From: a virus
Lineage: Duplodnaviria > Caudoviricetes
Virus record (IMG/VR): IMGVR_UViG_3300026125_000003
Coordinates: 1-59,573 of that record
DNA length: 59,573 nt
Strand: one strand, 5' to 3'
Below the pieces are notes generated by a model that did not search any database, was not told where the DNA came from, and saw only the letters and a program-made list of their open reading frames with translations. This document shows positions 3,011-19,610 of this stretch, in pieces (the stretch's first letter is position 1; the number at the start of each line of letters is the position of its first letter). A program made the translations under genes and the position numbers.

Positions 3011-3706
3011 ATGGCGATGAAACCTCGGCAACAATTAAAACTTAGGCTCGATGACTTAAAAGAAATTGAACCTATGACAAAGAACCAGGAGAAGGTCTGC
3101 AAGGCTTTCGGGAAGGGTGATAACATAGTCCTAGCAGGTTCAGCTGGTACTGGTAAAACCTTTCTAGCACTCGGTCTCGGTCTAGAGGAAGTGCTAGATA
3201 AGAACACCCCCTATCAAAAACTAATTGTTGTTCGATCTATTGTACCGACCCGAGATATCGGATTCCTTCCTGGTGATGAAGAAGAAAAGAAACTTGTGTA
3301 TGAGGCACCATATATCGGTATCTGCGCAAATCTTTTTGGTGTTAACGATGCTTGGGAAAAACTTAAACAATCAAACGACGTTGAGTTTATGACGACTTCG
3401 TTTATTCGTGGCGTAACCCTAGATGATTGTATTATTGTAGTTGATGAAATGCAGAACTTAACTGCCCACGAGCTCGACTCAGTCATTACTCGTGTTGGCG
3501 AAAACTGCCGCATCTTATTGTGTGGCGATTACTATCAGTCAGACTTCCACAAGAATAATGATAAGGACGGGATCCTTAAGTTCTTGGAAGTAGTGTCTCA
3601 CCTTACAGGATTCTCTATCATAGAGTTCAATTGGGAGGATATCGTCCGGAGCGGATTAGTTCGTGATTACATAATGACCAAAGAACAACTTGGAGTAAAA
3701 TTCTAA
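3011..3706 (+). CDS. phoH: PhoH-family ATPase
   Basis: Walker A GSAGTGKT, GFLPG, RGVTLD, DEMQN, GDYYQSD, DIVRSGLV. Confidence 0.93.
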   Translation: MAMKPRQQLKLRLDDLKEIEPMTKNQEKVCKAFGKGDNIVLAGSAGTGKTFLALGLGLEEVLDKNTPYQKLIVVRSIVPTRDIGFLPGDEEEKKLVYEAPYIGICANLFGVNDAWEKLKQSNDVEFMTTSFIRGVTLDDCIIVVDEMQNLTAHELDSVITRVGENCRILLCGDYYQSDFHKNNDKDGILKFLEVVSHLTGFSIIEFNWEDIVRSGLVRDYIMTKEQLGVKF

Positions 3707-4495: not shown

Positions 4496-4622
4496 TGCCT
4501 ATCAACAAATAAGTTATTGCTGCCAAACGGTAGCTGAGATGGAGCCAGTCTTTGAATACATTAAATTACTTGAAGAAAAAATCGCACAACTTGAAGAGGA
4601 ACTCGAAAATGGAAGGGCTTGA
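4464..4622 (+). CDS. small coiled-coil hypothetical protein
   Basis: GTG start behind GGAG; fills the gap between the exonuclease and the ClpP-like gene. Confidence 0.4.
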   Translation: MNTKEETASNDAYQQISYCCQTVAEMEPVFEYIKLLEEKIAQLEEELENGRA

Positions 4623-5265
4623 GAATATCATTAAACTGGGTCAACCCAAAGGTGCGTTCACTCATCGACCTGCTGGATATACGCACGAATTTTACTTGAC
4701 CGGAACTATAACATCAGCTGAAGATTATATTGAATGGTTTGATACCATTCGTCATGCTGGCGAGAATGACCTAGTAAAGATCTATATCAACTCTGAGGGC
4801 GGTAACTTATTTACTGCTGTGCAGTTTATGCGAGTGCTCACCGACTGTCATGCTGACGTTTGGATTAGCGTAGAAGGTGCTTGTATGAGCGCTGCTACGA
4901 TGATTATGCTTTGTGGCGATGCTTATGAAATCTCCCCTCACTCTATGTTTATGTTCCATAATTACTCTGGTGGAACAGTAGGTAAGGGTGGCGAGATGTA
5001 CGACAATATTGTATATGAACGTAAATGGTCTGAGAGGTTATTGCGCGAAGTTTATAAGGATTTCTTGACCGAAGAAGAAATAGAGTCTATTCTAAATAAT
5101 AAAGACCTATGGATGGAAGGTGACGAGATTCTAGATCGCTTACGTGAAAAGGTTAAAAAGTACGAAGATCAAACTGAAGAGATTAATGGCGATGAAGGAC
5201 AACAAAGCGACCTGTTTGATGAGACCAGCGAAGAGGAGTTGTTGGGTTCTAGGGATACCAATTGA
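4609..5265 (+). CDS. ClpP-like (S14) serine protease
   Basis: INSEGG, catalytic Ser in CMSAA, His in FMFHN, Asp in KDLWM; GAGGA RBS before ATG 4609. Confidence 0.85.
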   Translation: MEGLENIIKLGQPKGAFTHRPAGYTHEFYLTGTITSAEDYIEWFDTIRHAGENDLVKIYINSEGGNLFTAVQFMRVLTDCHADVWISVEGACMSAATMIMLCGDAYEISPHSMFMFHNYSGGTVGKGGEMYDNIVYERKWSERLLREVYKDFLTEEEIESILNNKDLWMEGDEILDRLREKVKKYEDQTEEINGDEGQQSDLFDETSEEELLGSRDTN

Positions 5266-7752: not shown

Positions 7753-9069
7753 ATGAATCTCTATAATTTGTCAGAAATTGCGCAAAACGAAATGCGTGAC
7801 TTTGCGTTGTACACAGTCGAGTCTCGCGCTATTCCTAACATGATAGACGGGCTCAAGCCAGTCCAACGTTTCTATTTGTATAGTTCTATAGTGAACACGC
7901 CAAAGGACTTTAAGAAGGTCTCTGCGGTCTCTGGCGTTGTATCCGACTACGGTTATCAACACGGTGAGGCAAGTGCTGCTGGCGCTGGTCAGCTGATGGC
8001 AGCCACATGGAACAATAACATTTGTTTGGTTGAAGGGCGAGGTTCTTTTGGCACCCGCCAAGTACAAGCGGCAGGAGCAGCACGGTATGTTTACACTCGT
8101 TTACATTCTAACTTCTCAAAATATATTAAAGACATATCATTATCCCCAGTTCACGAGGATCCCGAGCACACTCCTCCTGCTTTCTACATTCCTGTCATAC
8201 CATTGGTTTTGGCTAACGGAACGAAAGGAATTGCTACAGGATTCGCTACGAATATTCTTCCGCGTTCCGAAAAGGACTTGATTGCGGCATGTAAAGAGTA
8301 CATTAAAACTGGTAAAATTAAGAAGCGTCTTGCGGTATCGTTCCCCGACTTTAACGGAACGACCGAGTATGATGCGGCTTCTGACCGTTTCCTTTGTCGC
8401 GGAGTATTCCAACGACCCACAAGCACTCGTATCATAATCACTGAGATTCCGTATGGTTATGACCGAGAGGCTTATGTAAAGATACTCGATAAACTTGAAG
8501 ACGATGGCGATATTATTGGCTATGAAGACGAGTGTTCTTCTGATGGGTTTAGGTTTGATATCAAGCTGCGCAACTCTACAGCAAAGGTACTCAACAGTGA
8601 CGCTAAGGTAATCTCCAAATTCAAGCTCGAGAAAGCTCACTCTGAAAACCTAACGGTAATCGATGAGAACGGCAAACTCAAAGAATACACGGATGAGCGC
8701 GACTTGATCAAAGACTTCTGCGATTACCGATCTGGCGTTTTGGATAAGCGTATCGCGCGCGAGCTCGAGAAAGCGCAGGAAAGCCAGCGTTGGTTATCAG
8801 TAAAGGCTGCCTTCATTACTGCCGTGTTAGACGATAAGATTATTTTTAAAGGTAAGACTAAAGACAAGGTAATTGATCAGATGGTGTCAGCGCAAGTGCC
8901 TATTCAGGGCGATGATGCTGAACGTTTGCTTCGTATGAATATAATGACCCTCACTAAAGAAATGGTCGACGACCTCAAGAAGCAGATTAAGGAAGCTAAA
9001 GATCAGGTGAAATATTGGGAAGGTACAGATACAACTGAGCAATTCCTTATAGACATAGATGAATTATAA
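7753..9069 (+). CDS. gp52: DNA topoisomerase II medium subunit
   Basis: RAIPNMIDGLKPVQR, YQHGEAS, catalytic AARY, NGTKGIATGFAT, ITEIPYG. Confidence 0.95.
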   Translation: MNLYNLSEIAQNEMRDFALYTVESRAIPNMIDGLKPVQRFYLYSSIVNTPKDFKKVSAVSGVVSDYGYQHGEASAAGAGQLMAATWNNNICLVEGRGSFGTRQVQAAGAARYVYTRLHSNFSKYIKDISLSPVHEDPEHTPPAFYIPVIPLVLANGTKGIATGFATNILPRSEKDLIAACKEYIKTGKIKKRLAVSFPDFNGTTEYDAASDRFLCRGVFQRPTSTRIIITEIPYGYDREAYVKILDKLEDDGDIIGYEDECSSDGFRFDIKLRNSTAKVLNSDAKVISKFKLEKAHSENLTVIDENGKLKEYTDERDLIKDFCDYRSGVLDKRIARELEKAQESQRWLSVKAAFITAVLDDKIIFKGKTKDKVIDQMVSAQVPIQGDDAERLLRMNIMTLTKEMVDDLKKQIKEAKDQVKYWEGTDTTEQFLIDIDEL

Positions 9070-9072
9070 ATA
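9065..9072 (+). promoter_or_regulatory. late promoter TATAAATA
   Basis: Exact consensus about 25 nt upstream of ATG 9098. Confidence 0.75.
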
Positions 9073-9097
9073 TCAGTAATTAATGAAGGGGATACCC

Positions 9098-10306
9098 ATG
9101 GCTAATAAAATTGTAAAATCGTTCGGACCATACGCTGTCCTCATTGACGAGAAAGGCGTAGAGCAAGAACTATTTGAAGGGATGGAAGTATATCCAACCG
9201 ATACTGTAATTGGTGACGTTGAATACGAAGAAGTTCCGGAAGAAGTCGATGCCGAGGTTGCGGCTTTACAAGAAGCCATTCTTGCTGGTATCGATCCGAC
9301 TGAAGTAACAGAACCAACTGCCGCAGGGGCACCAGCAGCAGGGGAAGGCGTTCAGGATAGCGGTGGATCTAGCTTCGTTACCCTTGATAGGACAAACGGT
9401 GAAATAGATCCATACGCAGGATATGAAACAACGACCTTCTCTAGTGAGTTTGATAACCCAGAGGAACAGCCTCCTTTGACCATTGCCTTAGAGGAAGTTG
9501 ATACCATACCTCTACCAGTTGAAGATGAGCCAACGATATCAATTACTCCTAAAGATGAAGAACCTCCTGTTGTTCCTGACGAGCCAGTTGATGAGCCTGA
9601 ACCAGAAGAGGAACCTCCTGTTGTAGAACCTGAGGAGGAACCTGAGGATGAGGACGAAGATGATCCAGTTGATCCGCCAGTCGTTGATCCTGAACCTGAA
9701 GACGAAGAAGATGATTCAACTGGTCAGAATCCTGGTAATGATAAGGATGTAGGCAACAGCCCTCACGATGGTAATAAAGGGAACTCTAACGACGATGAGT
9801 CTCCGCTTGATAATAAAGAGGATAAAGGCGATGAACAAAGCGATAACCCTGAAGACGAATCTAGCGAAGATGAGCCTAAAGAACCCGAATCTCCTGAGGA
9901 TGGAGATGGAAGCGAAGTGGGTGAAGACAACAATTCAGAAGAGGATATTCCTGACACTTCGACTGGCCAAAATCCAGGAAATGATAAGAACGTAGGCAAC
10001 AGTAAGTTTGATGGCAACAAAGGAGCCAGTAACGACGATGAAGGTCCAAGAGATACGGATAGCACTGATAGTGATAGTAGCGGAGATGACGATGTTCTAT
10101 CTCCATCTGACCTCTTAGACGATGAAGAAACCCTCGACGACCTACTCCCGAAAGGTAAGGATAAAGAAGACAATCCTAACAAGGGTAAAGACAATGGTTG
10201 GGGTAATGGCGACGATGAAGCTCCAGGCGGAAGCCTAGATCACAACAACGCTGAAAACAACCTAGATGGATTATTGAGCCCAACTGAACAATATTATGAC
10301 AACTGA
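9098..10306 (+). CDS. LapA-type retention-module-containing acidic protein (mini T1SS-adhesin-like)
   Basis: VAALQEAILAGIDPTEVTEPTAAG...GGSSFVTLDRT..EIDP.AGYET N-terminal module; Asp/Glu/Pro linker; 2x TGQNPGNDKxVGNSxxDGNKG; NGWGNGDDEAPGGSLDHNNAEN. Confidence 0.75.
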   Translation: MANKIVKSFGPYAVLIDEKGVEQELFEGMEVYPTDTVIGDVEYEEVPEEVDAEVAALQEAILAGIDPTEVTEPTAAGAPAAGEGVQDSGGSSFVTLDRTNGEIDPYAGYETTTFSSEFDNPEEQPPLTIALEEVDTIPLPVEDEPTISITPKDEEPPVVPDEPVDEPEPEEEPPVVEPEEEPEDEDEDDPVDPPVVDPEPEDEEDDSTGQNPGNDKDVGNSPHDGNKGNSNDDESPLDNKEDKGDEQSDNPEDESSEDEPKEPESPEDGDGSEVGEDNNSEEDIPDTSTGQNPGNDKNVGNSKFDGNKGASNDDEGPRDTDSTDSDSSGDDDVLSPSDLLDDEETLDDLLPKGKDKEDNPNKGKDNGWGNGDDEAPGGSLDHNNAENNLDGLLSPTEQYYDN

Positions 10307-10445
10307 GAAAGAAGAATATACTGGACCAGAAAGGCGGAGGCGGTCTACAGAAGTAGATCGTCGTCACCCTGTTGATAGGCGCAAAAGGGTTACTCTGTTC
10401 CCCGACCGCAGAAAAGGACCAGGAAGACGCCATTACGATAAATAA
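10296..10445 (+). CDS. 49-aa Arg-rich peptide with YTGPERR and DRR repeats (candidate c-di-GMP binder), not in ORF track
   Basis: Hand translation MTTEKEEYTGPERRRRSTEVDRRHPVDRRKRVTLFPDRRKGPGRRHYDK; overlaps the upstream gene by 11 nt and fills the gap to the next promoter. Confidence 0.65.
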   Translation: MTTEKEEYTGPERRRRSTEVDRRHPVDRRKRVTLFPDRRKGPGRRHYDK

Positions 10446-10457
10446 TTTTTAAAAAGC

Positions 10458-10486
10458 TTTACTTTTGAATTTCAATCAACTATAAT
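10458..10486 (+). promoter_or_regulatory. early promoter
   Basis: TTTACT-17-TATAAT. Confidence 0.85.
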
Positions 10487-10513
10487 TAGGGTATTGAAAT
10501 TGAGGATTATATT

Positions 10514-10690
10514 ATGCAAAAGCTACTTGAGACCACCGGAACTTTAGACGGATTCCGTTACCCATCAAACGTCTACTACCTAGACGAAGCGGGTAAGCTC
10601 GTTGGGTTTTTAAATGAGAAAGGCGAGGAGAAGTTATTCACCAAACCTATGATGTTTGATAAGCGTGGGCGCAAGTTCAAGAAAGTTTAA
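10514..10690 (+). CDS. early hypothetical protein (58 aa, ...FTKPMMFDKRGRKFKKV), not in ORF track
   Basis: GAGGA RBS, first ORF after the promoter; hand-translated. Confidence 0.7.
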   Translation: MQKLLETTGTLDGFRYPSNVYYLDEAGKLVGFLNEKGEEKLFTKPMMFDKRGRKFKKV

Positions 10691-10706
10691 TATTCATGGA
10701 GAGATT

Positions 10707-10877
10707 ATGAGTTGGGAATACGATTCTGGAGGTCACAAAAAAGACCAAAAGAAATATTCAGAGAACTACGAAAAGATATTTAACGTAGAATGGCCATGCC
10801 CAGAATGCGGTGGCTCTAGAGTGACAGGTCATCAGGGAGACTGTTCTAGGCATTGGCGAAACAAAAAAGGTACTTAA
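10707..10877 (+). CDS. small protein with CPEC...HxxxC Zn-ribbon-like motif
   Basis: GGAGAG RBS before ATG 10707; YSENYEKIF..WPCPECGG. Confidence 0.6.
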   Translation: MSWEYDSGGHKKDQKKYSENYEKIFNVEWPCPECGGSRVTGHQGDCSRHWRNKKGT

Positions 10878-11189
10878 ATGGAAAAGTCAACGGTCACTTA
10901 TTACGGTGAAAACCCTGTAATACATCTTCCAGAAAAACTTACAATGGCAAACTCTGCCCTTGTTAAAAAGCAGATAGCTTTACTTGGTAATGGAACCGAA
11001 TTGGTGGTGGTTGACTTAGCTGGAACGAATTTGGTGGATTCGTCTGGATTATCTGTACTAGTAGCGAATAAGGACGTTATTAAATGTTTGCTTTCGCCGA
11101 ACGTTAACGTGTTATCATTACTTGAATTGACTCGATTACACGAAATCTTTATTATTGTTAATAGCATTAAAGGGGCGTTGGATTTATAA
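10878..11189 (+). CDS. STAS-domain anti-sigma factor antagonist (SpoIIAA/RsbV-like)
   Basis: VVVDLAGTNLVDSSGLSVLV (phospho-Ser motif DSSGL) and LLELTRLHEIFII. Confidence 0.85.
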   Translation: MEKSTVTYYGENPVIHLPEKLTMANSALVKKQIALLGNGTELVVVDLAGTNLVDSSGLSVLVANKDVIKCLLSPNVNVLSLLELTRLHEIFIIVNSIKGALDL

Positions 11190-12028
11190 TGAAACTTATT
11201 GATTTTAGGGACTCTGTTTGGGGTGGTATCGTTGCCGATGCTTATGGTGCTGCCTTTGAATTTAAAGCCCCGCACCAAATACCTAAATTAGATTCTCTAG
11301 AGCAAATTAAGAGAACTCAAGTCAAGAACGTTTTCGGTCATGAGGTCGGGCAGTTCACTGACGACGGTATTCTTATGCTTTGCGCCATGAAGTCGTTCAT
11401 TGAAAGTAAAAAGTTTGAACGCAACTCTCAGATGAAACACATCGGCGACTATCTTGTCCGTGGTGTATTTACTCCGGATGGACGTTGCTTCGACGTTGGT
11501 ATGGCTACAAGCCAAGCATACAATATGTGGGAATACGGTGGTACTTATAACCCTCCGTACAACTCTGGGGGTAACGGTGTTCTTATGCGTTTGGCTCCAT
11601 ACGCATTTTGGTCTCTTCATAACGTAGCTGGCGAGGATAAAGCGGATTACTACGATAGCGTCACGACATTAACTCATGGCGGTATAGCTAACGACACCAC
11701 ATACAAGATGGGAATAATGCTCGAGTGCCTTTGGTCCGGAACTTTTAATTTCGAAGATATTGAGAATTTCCGTACCATGTCCGACGACCGAACTTCATCA
11801 GGATTCTGTGAGGGTTCTTGGAATATCGCTCTTGATATATTTGAAAAAGGTGAATCGTACGAACGTTCTGTTCTCGACGCTATTGCTAAAGGGTATGATA
11901 CAGACACAAACGCTTGTATAGTCGGGCAGCTAATTGGCACTGATATAGTACCAAGTTGTATACCTTATAAATATGAAATAGAGAACATTATTCAGGAATT
12001 TAAGGATGTCTGTACAGCAACTAATTGA
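11189..12028 (+). CDS. ADP-ribosylglycohydrolase (DraG/ARH family)
   Basis: G..ADAYGAAFEF, GQFTDDG, FDVGMAT, GNGVLMRLAP, TH, GYDTDTNACIVGQLIG. Confidence 0.9.
   Translation: MKLIDFRDSVWGGIVADAYGAAFEFKAPHQIPKLDSLEQIKRTQVKNVFGHEVGQFTDDGILMLCAMKSFIESKKFERNSQMKHIGDYLVRGVFTPDGRCFDVGMATSQAYNMWEYGGTYNPPYNSGGNGVLMRLAPYAFWSLHNVAGEDKADYYDSVTTLTHGGIANDTTYKMGIMLECLWSGTFNFEDIENFRTMSDDRTSSGFCEGSWNIALDIFEKGESYERSVLDAIAKGYDTDTNACIVGQLIGTDIVPSCIPYKYEIENIIQEFKDVCTATN
11966..11973 (+). promoter_or_regulatory. late promoter TATAAATA
   Basis: Exact consensus about 32 nt upstream of the ADP-ribosyltransferase start. Confidence 0.7.
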
Positions 12029-13772
12029 GAGCCTTGACCTTCAAAGCGTAAATGCTGCGCCAATGATGAAGGAAAAATGGACACCAACCCTTCAGTATTT
12101 TGGTGGTCATTACGAGAAAAGTGGGAAAGATTATTACTACATTTTCCGCTTTGAAAATAAATGGCATGAGGGTGGCGTAAAGATTGGCAAATATACGTGG
12201 AATATGACGTTCCATGAGATGAACCTTGGTGACCCCAAGAAGTCAACTTCCAAACGTATTTCCAAGATTAGGCACCCTCTTCAGTTTGTTGCTTGTGCGC
12301 TTAAGGCTCTTGAAAAGCACTACAATTACAATACTGTTGTATTTGGTTACATGACGTTCATGCCTCCAAAGGCTCAGAAGGTTACTAACTTCATCGGACG
12401 TGTGGCGAAGCGTTCTTCGGCTCTCCGCATTATGCAGTCTAAGACAATATCCCTTTCTGGAGTTGATGGCGGTAAACTAAACCCGAACGGAAGCATGATT
12501 TTCTTTAACACCAAAGCATTGGAAGCTGAACAAGTTTTCACTGGCGTCATGAAGAAGATCAAGAAGTTTGGTGTGTATAAGCTTGATGATATTGGCGAGA
12601 ACGATATGGCGGTCGCTGCCTTTGTTAATAATAACGAAAAAGCTGCGACCAAAACCCGAGCACTTCGTTTTAATTTCGAAGAGCTATACTACCCAGGAAC
12701 AACAACATCTTATAATAAAGAGTTTCGAGCTCCGCGCGACCATTCTCCGGATAAAATGCCTCCAGCTATGCAGGCTGGTTATGCTCAGTATGAATTCGAT
12801 AAGATGGATATACAGGATGAAGAAGCTAGGGCATATGCTATCTCAAGGTCGGTTTCTGATAATTGGTTGATCGAGGACGAGCTCCACACAGATATTAAAG
12901 ATATGGATCATATCAACGCAATCAAGGCGTTCACTGGTTCACAGTACGGAGATATGCGTAAGATGGTGTTTGGGGCATATTCTGATCCACCGTCAGGTTA
13001 TGATCAACAAACCGTTGACACCGCTATTCAAAATATGAAGCGTCTCGATTCTACGTTTGATAGTATCGGTCACAACCTTGAGTTTTACAAAGGGTATCTC
13101 TTCCGTGGCGTGGATATCAGCGGATACTCTGCTGAACAAGAATGGATTCGCCGTTTCTTGGTTGAGGATAAAACTGCTCTACCGACATATACTTCGTTCA
13201 CCACTCGAGTAGAAATTGCTTGCTCCTTTGGCAATTTCTCCGCAGGGGCAGCCCGTAACTTCTTTGGCGGTGATAAGGATAACTATCGCCAATTTAGTAG
13301 CGGTGCTGATGCCGTTGCTTGGATCGAGAGCCAGAGACCGGATAAAGAGTTGTGGAAAGGTACAACTCTGTCTTATGAAGTTAATTCTATGAATATTATC
13401 ATGTTCAGCCGTCAAGACTTTTCTCAGCTTCAGTGTGTAATACCAGGAGAGATTTCCCAATACGAAACTGAGCGAGAAATTATCCTTTCTCGAGGTACTA
13501 TGATGGAAGCTGTAAATTATTGGTTGTCTTTCTCCGATGATGGGCGGATTACAGGGTTTATTGAATATGATATTGTTGGACCACCTTCTCGCGCACGCAT
13601 GGAAGAGTTTAACTACACTGAGCCAAAAGGGTTCTCTCGCTTTATTGCTGAAGCTAAACGACCTAAGAAAGCGACTAAACCTAAGAAAGAAAAAGATCGT
13701 AAGTACACCAAAGAAGAGTTCGAAGAACTGAAGATAAAATTTGGTTCCAACCCATTCCATTATGATGGATAA
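12006..13772 (+). CDS. Alt-like ADP-ribosyltransferase (R-S-ExE class)
   Basis: C-terminal VIP2-like signature: AIKAFTGSQY, YLFRGV (R), YTSFTT (S), YETEREIILSRG (ExE). Confidence 0.75.
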   Translation: MSVQQLIESLDLQSVNAAPMMKEKWTPTLQYFGGHYEKSGKDYYYIFRFENKWHEGGVKIGKYTWNMTFHEMNLGDPKKSTSKRISKIRHPLQFVACALKALEKHYNYNTVVFGYMTFMPPKAQKVTNFIGRVAKRSSALRIMQSKTISLSGVDGGKLNPNGSMIFFNTKALEAEQVFTGVMKKIKKFGVYKLDDIGENDMAVAAFVNNNEKAATKTRALRFNFEELYYPGTTTSYNKEFRAPRDHSPDKMPPAMQAGYAQYEFDKMDIQDEEARAYAISRSVSDNWLIEDELHTDIKDMDHINAIKAFTGSQYGDMRKMVFGAYSDPPSGYDQQTVDTAIQNMKRLDSTFDSIGHNLEFYKGYLFRGVDISGYSAEQEWIRRFLVEDKTALPTYTSFTTRVEIACSFGNFSAGAARNFFGGDKDNYRQFSSGADAVAWIESQRPDKELWKGTTLSYEVNSMNIIMFSRQDFSQLQCVIPGEISQYETEREIILSRGTMMEAVNYWLSFSDDGRITGFIEYDIVGPPSRARMEEFNYTEPKGFSRFIAEAKRPKKATKPKKEKDRKYTKEEFEELKIKFGSNPFHYDG

Positions 13773-13861: not shown

Positions 13862-14317
13862 ATGTCTTTTGGTGCTATGGCCACTTTTATTGTCGCTTCA
13901 ACCCTACACACTGGACCTGCCTTAGAGGTTTCTCTTAACGATTATGTGTGTATGGTTGAAGCGATTCATTTTGAAGCGAAAGGAGAAAATTATGAAGGTA
14001 AAGTCGCAGTTGCTAACGTCATTAAAAACCGTGTCGCTCATAGCGGTTTTCCTGGCGACGTGTGTGGTGTGGTAACTCAACGCAGGCAATTCTCATACCG
14101 CGATGACGGTAAACCAACCCTAGTATTGAAGAATAAAATTGAAGAAGAAAGTTTTAAAGAGTCCGCAAGGATTGCTTTACTTGCTGTTAACGATAGTCTT
14201 GCCGACAACACTGGCGGTGCTGACCACTACTATGCCCACAATAAAGTAGAACCGTATTGGAAAGATGCCGCAACTCATTCTAAAGTTCTGGGCAACCACA
14301 CCTTCGTTAGATTATAA
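13862..14317 (+). CDS. SleB-like cell wall hydrolase (Hydrolase_2)
   Basis: CMVEAIHFEAKGE..GKVAVANVIKNRV..FPGDVCGVV.Q..QFS, GADHYY, PYW, GNHTF. Confidence 0.9.
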   Translation: MSFGAMATFIVASTLHTGPALEVSLNDYVCMVEAIHFEAKGENYEGKVAVANVIKNRVAHSGFPGDVCGVVTQRRQFSYRDDGKPTLVLKNKIEEESFKESARIALLAVNDSLADNTGGADHYYAHNKVEPYWKDAATHSKVLGNHTFVRL

Positions 14318-19247: not shown

Positions 19248-19610
19248 ATGAAAAAGAAAGTCCTAATAGTAGACGACGATTTAACAATCATTAATGTATA
19301 TAAACGAGTCCTCGCTAAGAACGGGTATGAACCAATAGTGATGCGTTCCCCTCGTAAAGCGGACCTTGAAAACATACCTGAAGTCGACATCGCGATAGTC
19401 GATATGGTAATGCCTTATGTAAGTGGATTTGATTTTGTGTTGTACTTACATGAAAAGAAAATCAATATACCAGTACTGATAGTGTCCGGCGATAAAGGAA
19501 TCGCCAGGATGGTTACAACTATCAGAAGGGGTGAACTAACCGATGGTTGGTTGTATAAACCTGTCGCAGGTCACCAACTAATCGCAAAGATTGAGGAAAT
19601 CCTTTCTTGA
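19248..19610 (+). CDS. stand-alone response regulator receiver (CheY-like) protein
   Basis: VLIVDDD, phospho-acceptor Asp in IVDMVMP..SGF, VSG, YKP. Confidence 0.9.
   Translation: MKKKVLIVDDDLTIINVYKRVLAKNGYEPIVMRSPRKADLENIPEVDIAIVDMVMPYVSGFDFVLYLHEKKINIPVLIVSGDKGIARMVTTIRRGELTDGWLYKPVAGHQLIAKIEEILS

Follow-up and report, generated by a model that had tools for sequence, protein, structure and literature searches.

A LapA-type retention module at the N-terminus of a 402-residue accessory protein of an uncultured T4-like phage

Does a T4-like phage encode a protein that enters the pathway by which Gram-negative bacteria hold and release their surface adhesins? The question is raised by two overlapping open reading frames (ORFs) in IMG/VR virus record IMGVR_UViG_3300026125_000003 (Duplodnaviria; Caudoviricetes), of which the whole 59,573-nt stretch that was analysed is here called the window. 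How cyclic di-GMP (c-di-GMP) controls the attachment of Gram-negative cells is best understood for the LapA/LapG/LapD system. An earlier note on this DNA had proposed that a late promoter drives both ORFs, that the upstream one encodes a LapA-like protein with a LapG-type site and the downstream one an arginine-repeat peptide resembling c-di-GMP-binding motifs, and that both point to this one host pathway. We find that the upstream gene encodes an acidic protein of 402 amino acids (aa) with a LapA-type retention module at its extreme N-terminus (residues 1–113 of 402). Its parts, in window coordinates, are as follows.

9098 (or 9083)–10306, plus strand: gene for the 402-aa acidic protein, defined from the ORF list, the NF033682 match and the codon score
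9098–9232, plus strand: residues 1–45, shortened plug, a five-strand beta domain (AlphaFold2 pLDDT 91–97 for residues 1–40)
9236–9436, plus strand: residues 47–113, the part matched by NF033682, which holds the helix ALQEAILAG, DPT, TAAG and GGSSFVTLDRTNGEIDPYAGYETTTF
9317–9328, plus strand: residues 74–77, TAAG di-alanine site, the site type cut by LapG in LapA
9458–10087, plus strand: residues 121–330, acidic linker rich in Pro, Asp and Glu, predicted to be disordered from the AlphaFold2 model and composition
10088–10303, plus strand: residues 331–402, conserved C-terminal module, consisting of DVLSPSDLLDDEETLDDLL, then NGWGNGDDEAPGGSLDHNNAEN (~10193–10258), then the tail NLDGLLSPTEQYYDN

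The assignment is carried by the NCBIfam family NF033682 (retention_LapA), which matches residues 47–113 of the protein to positions 82–144 of its 145-position profile with 66 bits (E 4e-18) against a cut-off of 50, and with 64.1 bits in a genome-mode search. Searches of Pfam and PHROGs, structural families included, returned no match for the protein. Excerpts of PMC10990149 place the LapA retention module at M1–S125 and LapG cleavage at 108AA109, and describe how cleavage at the di-alanine frees the adhesin, with LapA released through LapE; retention modules are described there as interchangeable. In the phage protein the site reads T74 A75 A76 G77, which is invariant in all six sequences of the short-type family alignment described below, and A75 A76 G77 remains invariant in 50 of 50 aligned homologues, bacterial ones included. 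The site together with the 35 residues that follow it is 50–63% identical to bacterial modules. The retention module and the LapG-type site claimed by the earlier note are thus confirmed, and cleavage of the 402-aa protein by LapG at TAAG is predicted from the conservation of the site. The codon score of the gene is positive in its own frame only, and its codon score and GC content agree with those of the phage.

The beginning of the module departs from the usual form. Only about 45 residues precede the helix in the 402-aa protein, compared with about 75 in the usual plug, and profile positions 1–81 are left unmatched. AlphaFold2, run with a 50-row alignment, returned a confident five-strand fold for residues 1–45 (pLDDT 91–97), a helix at residues 52–62 and disorder beyond. 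Of 30 alignment rows inspected, the 6 of short type are without some 30 plug residues, corresponding to two to three strands, which are present in the 24 of bacterial type; the bacterial modules of loci L104 and L147 have a full-size plug. The top match in the PDB is entry 5ix9 both by fold (Foldseek E 0.045, prob 0.97, 69 columns) and by sequence (E 0.0023; query residues 31–83 against chain residues 75–127).

Judged from the alignments, the 402-aa protein is a member of a small family with the same conserved ends. An exhaustive HMMER search with residues 1–120 against 1.84 billion representatives found 258 proteins at E ≤ 0.001, of which 150 were listed. Most of the matches listed are long adhesin-like proteins matched at their residues ~80–240, which is the giant-adhesin pattern, and five short proteins (P0002–P0006) match from their own residue 2–6 on. 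Three of these, P0002 (280 aa), P0005 (384 aa) and P0006 (516 aa), have the same whole architecture as the 402-aa protein at 41–59% identity: a short domain at the N-terminus, then the helix, TAAG and GGSxFVxLxRTxxExDPxAGYxTxTF, followed by an acidic linker and NG(W/F/Y)GNGDxxAPGxSxxNNNAEN in one copy or two, with the tail LDG(L/I)L..(P)EQ(Y/H)YD common to P0002 and P0006. A word-indexed protein search with the N-terminal 125 residues yielded only the 402-aa protein itself among 504 candidates. Searches of named phage genomes by blastn and tblastn, using the region or the 402-aa protein, gave no match, and an IMG/VR search with the single 402-aa protein gave 97 pattern matches, none of them a relative. 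An alignment-based scan of IMG/VR identified three more contigs with the short module (L082–L084), two of which are the same phage (99.8% identity) and the third a variant; the module occurs in two other phage lineages. Their protein (L082:8001–10841) is 946 aa long, with the short module (NF033682, 65 bits) and an RTAAG site followed, by eye, by long Thr-rich repeats and an acidic cadherin-like stretch. The NF033682 cut-off is passed by all five relatives tested (P0002, P0004, P0005, P0006 and the L082 protein). Contigs L082–L084 have one further gene in common with the window, 75% identical, and contain TATAAATA motifs. The neighbours of the gene in L082 are, by eye, putative SdhB-type iron-sulfur, IscU-type scaffold and MORN-repeat proteins.

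Beyond the module there is no giant repetitive region; the protein ends at 402 aa and its post-module part is predicted to be disordered. The linker has two copies of the repeat STGQNPGNDK(D/N)VGNS..DGNKG.SNDDE, at residues 207 and 288, and P0002 has one. The protein has a pI of 4.05 (127 D+E against 19 K+R), contains no Cys and has neither a hydrophobic segment nor a Sec-type N-terminus, a composition that is consistent with export. The C-terminal module is 67% identical in P0006 and 57% in P0002. Its motif NGWGNGD..APG..NNAEN was found in 108 genome stretches, most of them from Rhodobacteraceae and encoding proteins that are TadE/TadG-like by eye, and also in small proteins rich in Gly and Asn and in a few giant proteins of the RTX type; this occurrence fits an extracytoplasmic location of the phage protein. 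No Pfam or NCBIfam model matched the motif in the 402-aa protein or in P0152, and the C-terminal tail motif, when back-translated, had no match in IMG/VR and three matches in metagenome contigs, all to unrelated proteins. As an observation on the motif itself, the form NNGWGNGD(Q/D)(D/E)APG(N/G)S..NNNAEN spans 22–24 highly conserved residues and is also seen in Verrucomicrobia and Bacteriovoracaceae.

The phage that carries this gene is represented by a 59.6-kb fragment with an estimated completeness of 33%, and its T4-type genes include RNase H, PhoH, a Clp-like protease and the large and medium topoisomerase II subunits. The homologue of the medium subunit, gp52, is at most 44% identical to those of named phages (best with Aeromonas phages; 2126 records matched), yet 61–74% identical to IMG/VR relatives among the best 80 of 236 stretches encoding one, which places the phage in an uncultured yet common T4-like clade. 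Neither the 402-aa gene nor the downstream 49-aa ORF is encoded in these 80 related loci (E ≤ 1e-3), and the two closest relatives have unrelated genes at the spot 3′ of gp52. Because of this absence and replacement, the comparison of loci identifies the pair as an accessory insertion (a ‘moron’) in a hypervariable region after the gp52 topoisomerase gene. The earlier note had looked to co-occurrence of the two genes across phages, and this was not observed: in addition to their absence from the 80 related loci, a search of 83 phage loci, the three other short-anchor loci included, gave no peptide-like ORF (best E 0.6). Rfam gave no match at E ≤ 1 in 8900–11000. Sequencing runs containing window DNA are labelled freshwater and soil metagenome, with short pieces identical to window DNA found in two runs labelled soil. 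The runs listed include no RNA data; a comparison with four of them yielded contigs, two of which are near-identical and may be where the DNA came from.

Three further features define the predicted transcription unit to which the 402-aa gene belongs.

9065–9072, plus strand: T4-type late-promoter-like motif TATAAATA, overlapping the gp52 stop codon and 26 nt upstream of ATG 9098
10296–10445, plus strand: 49-aa arginine-rich ORF, overlapping the 402-aa gene by 11 nt
10458–10486, plus strand: sigma-70-like promoter TTTACT-17-TATAAT, start of the next transcription unit

The motif TATAAATA, which we take to be the T4 late-promoter consensus, occurs 15 times in the window compared with 4.24 ± 1.99 expected, a count that none of 100 shuffles reached, and for 10 of these copies a same-strand ATG ORF of at least 45 aa begins within the next 100 nt. 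From the motif and its placement, promoter activity is predicted at 9065. Translation of the 402-aa protein most likely starts at 9098, since AAGGGGA precedes this ATG (by eye) and the homologue P0002 begins MNKIVKSF. No terminator-like site was detected between the two ORFs or before 10458, and the sigma-70-like promoter at 10458–10486 sets the 3′ boundary of the pair. Given the overlap, the lack of an intervening terminator and the position of the next promoter, the two ORFs form one late-promoter unit; in this the earlier note was right. At 10450–10489, the element around the downstream promoter has ~87–90% identical copies (4–5 differences in 37–40 nt) on other contigs from the same runs, and this early-type element may be a repeated promoter cassette bounding mobile gene modules.

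What the 49-aa ORF encodes is less straightforward. It has a predicted pI of 11.1 and contains YTGPERR..DRR..DRR..GRR, so that the arginine-repeat motif named in the earlier note is present. The suggested likeness to c-di-GMP-binding motifs turned out to be weak: PilZ domains bind c-di-GMP through RxxxR and (D/N)xSxxG, and the ORF has no PilZ match, no RxxxR and a single RxxD (residue 45). A word-indexed protein search returned no candidates, and all that the ESM Atlas gave were small, unnamed clusters from bacteria (0.90), with recognition under threshold. A tblastn search against the fetched loci found a weak match to a ~103-aa ORF in Neptuniibacter, located ~850 nt upstream of a LapA-like gene and divergent from it. 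This led to an unnamed family of ~105 aa, here called ERR/DRR, with the pattern MKLVKD..VFYW..SP..AEEWW..Y.G.ERR..DRR..GRR.(S/T)D..DL..K (members L150–L157 and L162–L174). With a profile of 19 paralogues, the 49-aa ORF ranks first of 1186 window ORFs (16.9 bits, E 3.7e-4; next E 0.8), and none of 2000 composition-preserving shuffles reached its score (16.3 bits for the real sequence, 11.6 for the best shuffle). It aligns only to profile positions 42–87, with the flanking N-terminal hairpin/helix and C-terminal strand/helix missing. In a joint alignment it retains all invariant core residues (Y.G.ERR, DRR, GRR..D), and R51, R52, D57, R59 and R82 are still invariant. On these alignments, the 49-aa ORF is the arginine loop of the ERR/DRR family alone.

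The family itself is narrowly distributed. Of the genomes sampled, 44 of 151 from the Neptuniibacter/Marinobacterium family encode it, compared with none of 400 others of the class; four genomes have 9, 4, 8 and 2 matches. Signalling genes are frequent neighbours of its copies: those found beside the copies examined encode PAS-GGDEF(-EAL), HD_5, MCP, cNMP-binding, receiver and FapA proteins (10 neighbours scanned, nine with a Pfam match). A predicted structure of the family (pLDDT 80) is a small alpha/beta domain in which the arginine segment forms a low-confidence loop. No Pfam or NCBIfam model covers the family, its best E in a PDB fold search is 0.64, the ESM Atlas gave no usable feature match for a bacterial member (structure rows TM ≤ 0.43), and 109 pattern matches in IMG/VR included no relatives. 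Of 65 bacterial loci, four have a copy within 3 kb of a LapA-like gene, and these four belong to the 18 loci from Neptuniibacter. In one such interval, L091:1920–2320 (= L150:1880–2160), tandem putative tRNA genes are seen between the ERR/DRR and LapA-like genes (repeated GFESL-type reading, by eye). The link between peptide and LapA is real at the level of bacterial gene neighbourhoods, as read from a few loci, some of them orthologous. The proposal that both genes point to the same host pathway therefore stands in part: both lead to one bacterial neighbourhood, in which ERR/DRR genes lie beside LapA-like adhesins and c-di-GMP enzymes, while the PilZ-type motif that would tie the peptide directly to c-di-GMP is absent.

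The same bacteria are the nearest relatives of the retention module. By tblastn, the closest bacterial module is that of a Marinobacterium metagenome-assembled genome (MAG; 63% over residues 54–122), followed by an Oceanospirillaceae MAG, Neptuniibacter and Neptunomonas, and then by Methylophaga, Pseudomonas, Vibrio and Marinomonas. The survey of bacterial modules confirmed 66 of 600 pattern matches, giving the 65 loci mentioned above, 18 of which are from Neptuniibacter. LapG-type proteases (PF06035) are encoded in all four genomes examined from the nearest bacterial lineages. The probable donor of the pair is a gammaproteobacterial host from the Neptuniibacter/Marinobacterium family.

How might such a protein work? 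The reading that we favour, to which we assign about an even chance, takes the 402-aa protein for a LapA-type cargo in miniature, exported by the type I secretion system (T1SS) of the host, held in the pore, releasable by LapG, and competing with the native adhesin or masking the cell surface. It would be made late in infection and exported C-terminus first through a LapBCE-type T1SS of the host, until the plug, still on the periplasmic side, brings it to a halt at the TolC-like pore. An acidic tether, a disordered chain of ~290 residues that ends in the C-terminal module, would then coat the cell surface and could be released by LapG. The phage protein would compete with the giant adhesin of the host for pores and for LapG, and the infected cell, together with its debris, would adhere differently or have its surface masked. 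The 49-aa peptide, if translated, would most likely mimic the ERR/DRR loop and compete for the partner of that loop.

Several observations weigh against this reading. All bacterial homologues inspected have a plug ~30 residues longer, and the mode of retention may therefore differ from that of LapA. The 402-aa protein has no RTX nonapeptides (GGxGxD); a profile of 32 bacterial adhesin C-termini of the T1SS type found no match (E ≤ 20) in it or in P0002, P0004, P0005 and P0006; and its C-terminal 102 residues match nothing in NCBIfam at E ≤ 10. T1SS signals are poorly conserved; a resemblance of DVLSPSDLL and the terminal L.GLL......D to the bacterial DVLDLSDLL ... LL..N..VD was noted by eye only. 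A late promoter would leave a short time before lysis. The run labels are freshwater and soil, whereas the predicted host genera, of the Neptuniibacter/Marinobacterium type, are marine. As for the peptide, the adjacency of ERR/DRR and LapA-like genes comes from orthologous loci of related strains with tRNA-like sequence between the genes, and with the first profile, built from four sequences, the real ORF scored 14.6 bits and the best shuffle 14.4.

A competing explanation, which we regard as unlikely, sees the 402-aa protein as part of the virion, or as packaged and injected, with an adhesin N-terminus re-used as a structural or targeting piece and without any role for a host secretion system; the 946-aa relatives would then be capsid or fibre decorations. 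The late-promoter motif is of the kind found at structural genes, the search for a T1SS signal gave none, and the Thr-rich repeats and cadherin-like stretch of the 946-aa relatives, noted by eye, are typical of decoration proteins. In addition, an Alt-like ADP-ribosyltransferase (phrog_802) with its own late motif at 11966 is encoded nearby, and Alt of T4 is packaged in the head. Structural re-use would not, however, need an invariant AAG or 50–63% identity to bacterial modules over TAAG and the next 35 residues; no PHROG or Pfam structural family matches; and the gene is surrounded by early and accessory genes, a long way from the structural block (28–59 kb). The reading of the earlier note, a strict LapG decoy, appears somewhat less probable still: the protein would act as a competing substrate at the periplasmic face of the pore, keeping LapG busy so that the native adhesin stays in place and the infected cell stays attached. 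The conserved di-alanine site and its flanks would suit such a decoy, as would the LapG-type proteases in all four candidate host-lineage genomes and the release of the adhesin by LapG cutting at the di-alanine (excerpts of PMC10990149). Yet the decoy depends on the same export step as the cargo that we favour, nothing separates it from pore competition or surface masking, and stoichiometric inhibition by a substrate that is consumed seems inefficient late in infection. That the whole insert is recently captured host DNA without function we consider very improbable. It is present in only 1 of 81 related gp52 loci, as such a capture would be, but the gene, with a re-modelled plug and a chain of 402 aa, is more than a fragment; at least three further sequences at 41–59% identity have both conserved ends, the same short plug occurs in two other phage lineages, and GC content and codon score are phage-like.

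For the 49-aa ORF alone, the alternative is a non-gene, either a decaying fragment of a captured host gene or the untranslated 3′ part of the late transcript, and we give this a chance only a little below even. No Shine-Dalgarno sequence is visible; the codon score (−0.14) is negative; CGG and AGG, both rare in the phage, make up 6 of the 13 Arg codons; there is no gene call in the protein collection; and no family matches in Pfam or NCBIfam (E ≤ 0.1) or in PHROGs. These points, together with the lack of a peptide-like ORF in other phage loci, favour a non-gene; the missing Shine-Dalgarno sequence, the codon data and the lack of a gene call also count against the part given to the peptide above. 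On the other side, an ATG is present and the frame is open over exactly the conserved loop with all invariant core residues intact, its own frame scores best of the three, and the 11-nt overlap with the upstream stop would permit translational coupling. A divergent 151-nt contig also spans the junction at 10193–10342 with 18 differences in 150 nt and no gaps. On the strength of these sequence features, translation of the ORF seems somewhat the better guess. A more far-reaching version of the cargo reading is improbable in our estimate: the phage would use the host T1SS pore and the c-di-GMP-gated LapG/LapD switch as an effector route, with the miniature LapA lodged in the pore and covering or masking the infected cell, and so change attachment, superinfection or the loss of progeny on debris; the co-transcribed peptide would bias the same pathway by imitating a signalling-linked small protein of the host, and short-plug proteins would be a recurrent tool in several phage lineages.

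The surroundings of the pair contain other accessory genes. The earlier note had placed the pair within a wider theme of signalling manipulation, citing a STAS gene and a stand-alone receiver protein. Both genes are real, a stand-alone STAS gene at 10878–11189 (PF01740, 32.8 bits against a cut-off of 22.6) and a stand-alone receiver at 19248–19610 (PF00072 at 19260–19595, 50.6 bits against 30.2), while nothing connects either of them to the pair. At 11189–13772, an ADP-ribosylglycohydrolase gene (PF03747, E 8e-36) is directly followed by that of the Alt-like ADP-ribosyltransferase (phrog_802, E 5e-15; own TATAAATA at 11966), forming an adjoining eraser/writer pair. Further accessory genes encode PhoH (3011–3706), a Clp-protease-like protein (4552–5265) and a cell-wall hydrolase (Hydrolase_2; 13862–14317).

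Among the papers listed in full-text searches, none describes a phage-encoded retention module; in the excerpt of one phage-related match, the ‘retention module-containing’ genes are bacterial, with single-nucleotide polymorphisms in a prophage-deletion mutant, and the excerpt of another only cites Smith et al. 2018. Were export and retention to hold for the 402-aa protein, it would rank as the first effector of a phage to pass through a type I secretion pore, and it would offer a small natural ‘minimal cargo’ with which retention and recognition by LapG can be studied. The analysis also defines two uncharacterised elements, the lineage-restricted arginine-loop family of small proteins near signalling genes and the NGWGNGDxxAPG..NNAEN motif, and the two host-derived genes provide a host prediction for an uncultured phage clade.

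Among known systems, the closest in sequence logic is LapA of Pseudomonas fluorescens with its LapG/LapD control (Smith et al. 2018, as cited in PMC10990149). The phage protein shares with it the N-terminal module, the helix ALQxAILAGxDPT, (T)AAG, the segment GGSxFVxLxRTxxExDPxAGYxT and an NF033682 score above the cut-off. It differs in being encoded by a lytic-type T4-like phage, in its length (402 aa compared with thousands), in its plug (~45 compared with ~75 aa) and in having no RTX repeats or detectable T1SS C-terminal domain. Its best PDB match by both fold and sequence, 5ix9, is the Region I N-terminal anchor of the Marinomonas primoryensis ice-binding adhesin. The 49-aa ORF shares with the bacterial ERR/DRR proteins the invariant residues of the central loop, without their N-terminal hairpin/helix and C-terminal strand/helix. 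A parallel among phage proteins may be Llp of T5, a lipoprotein that is made early and blocks FhuA. The two have no sequence relation, and the route proposed here is a type I secretion pore under a late-type promoter; the likeness would be one of logic only, in that a phage-made protein at an outer-membrane protein guards the infected cell or the progeny.

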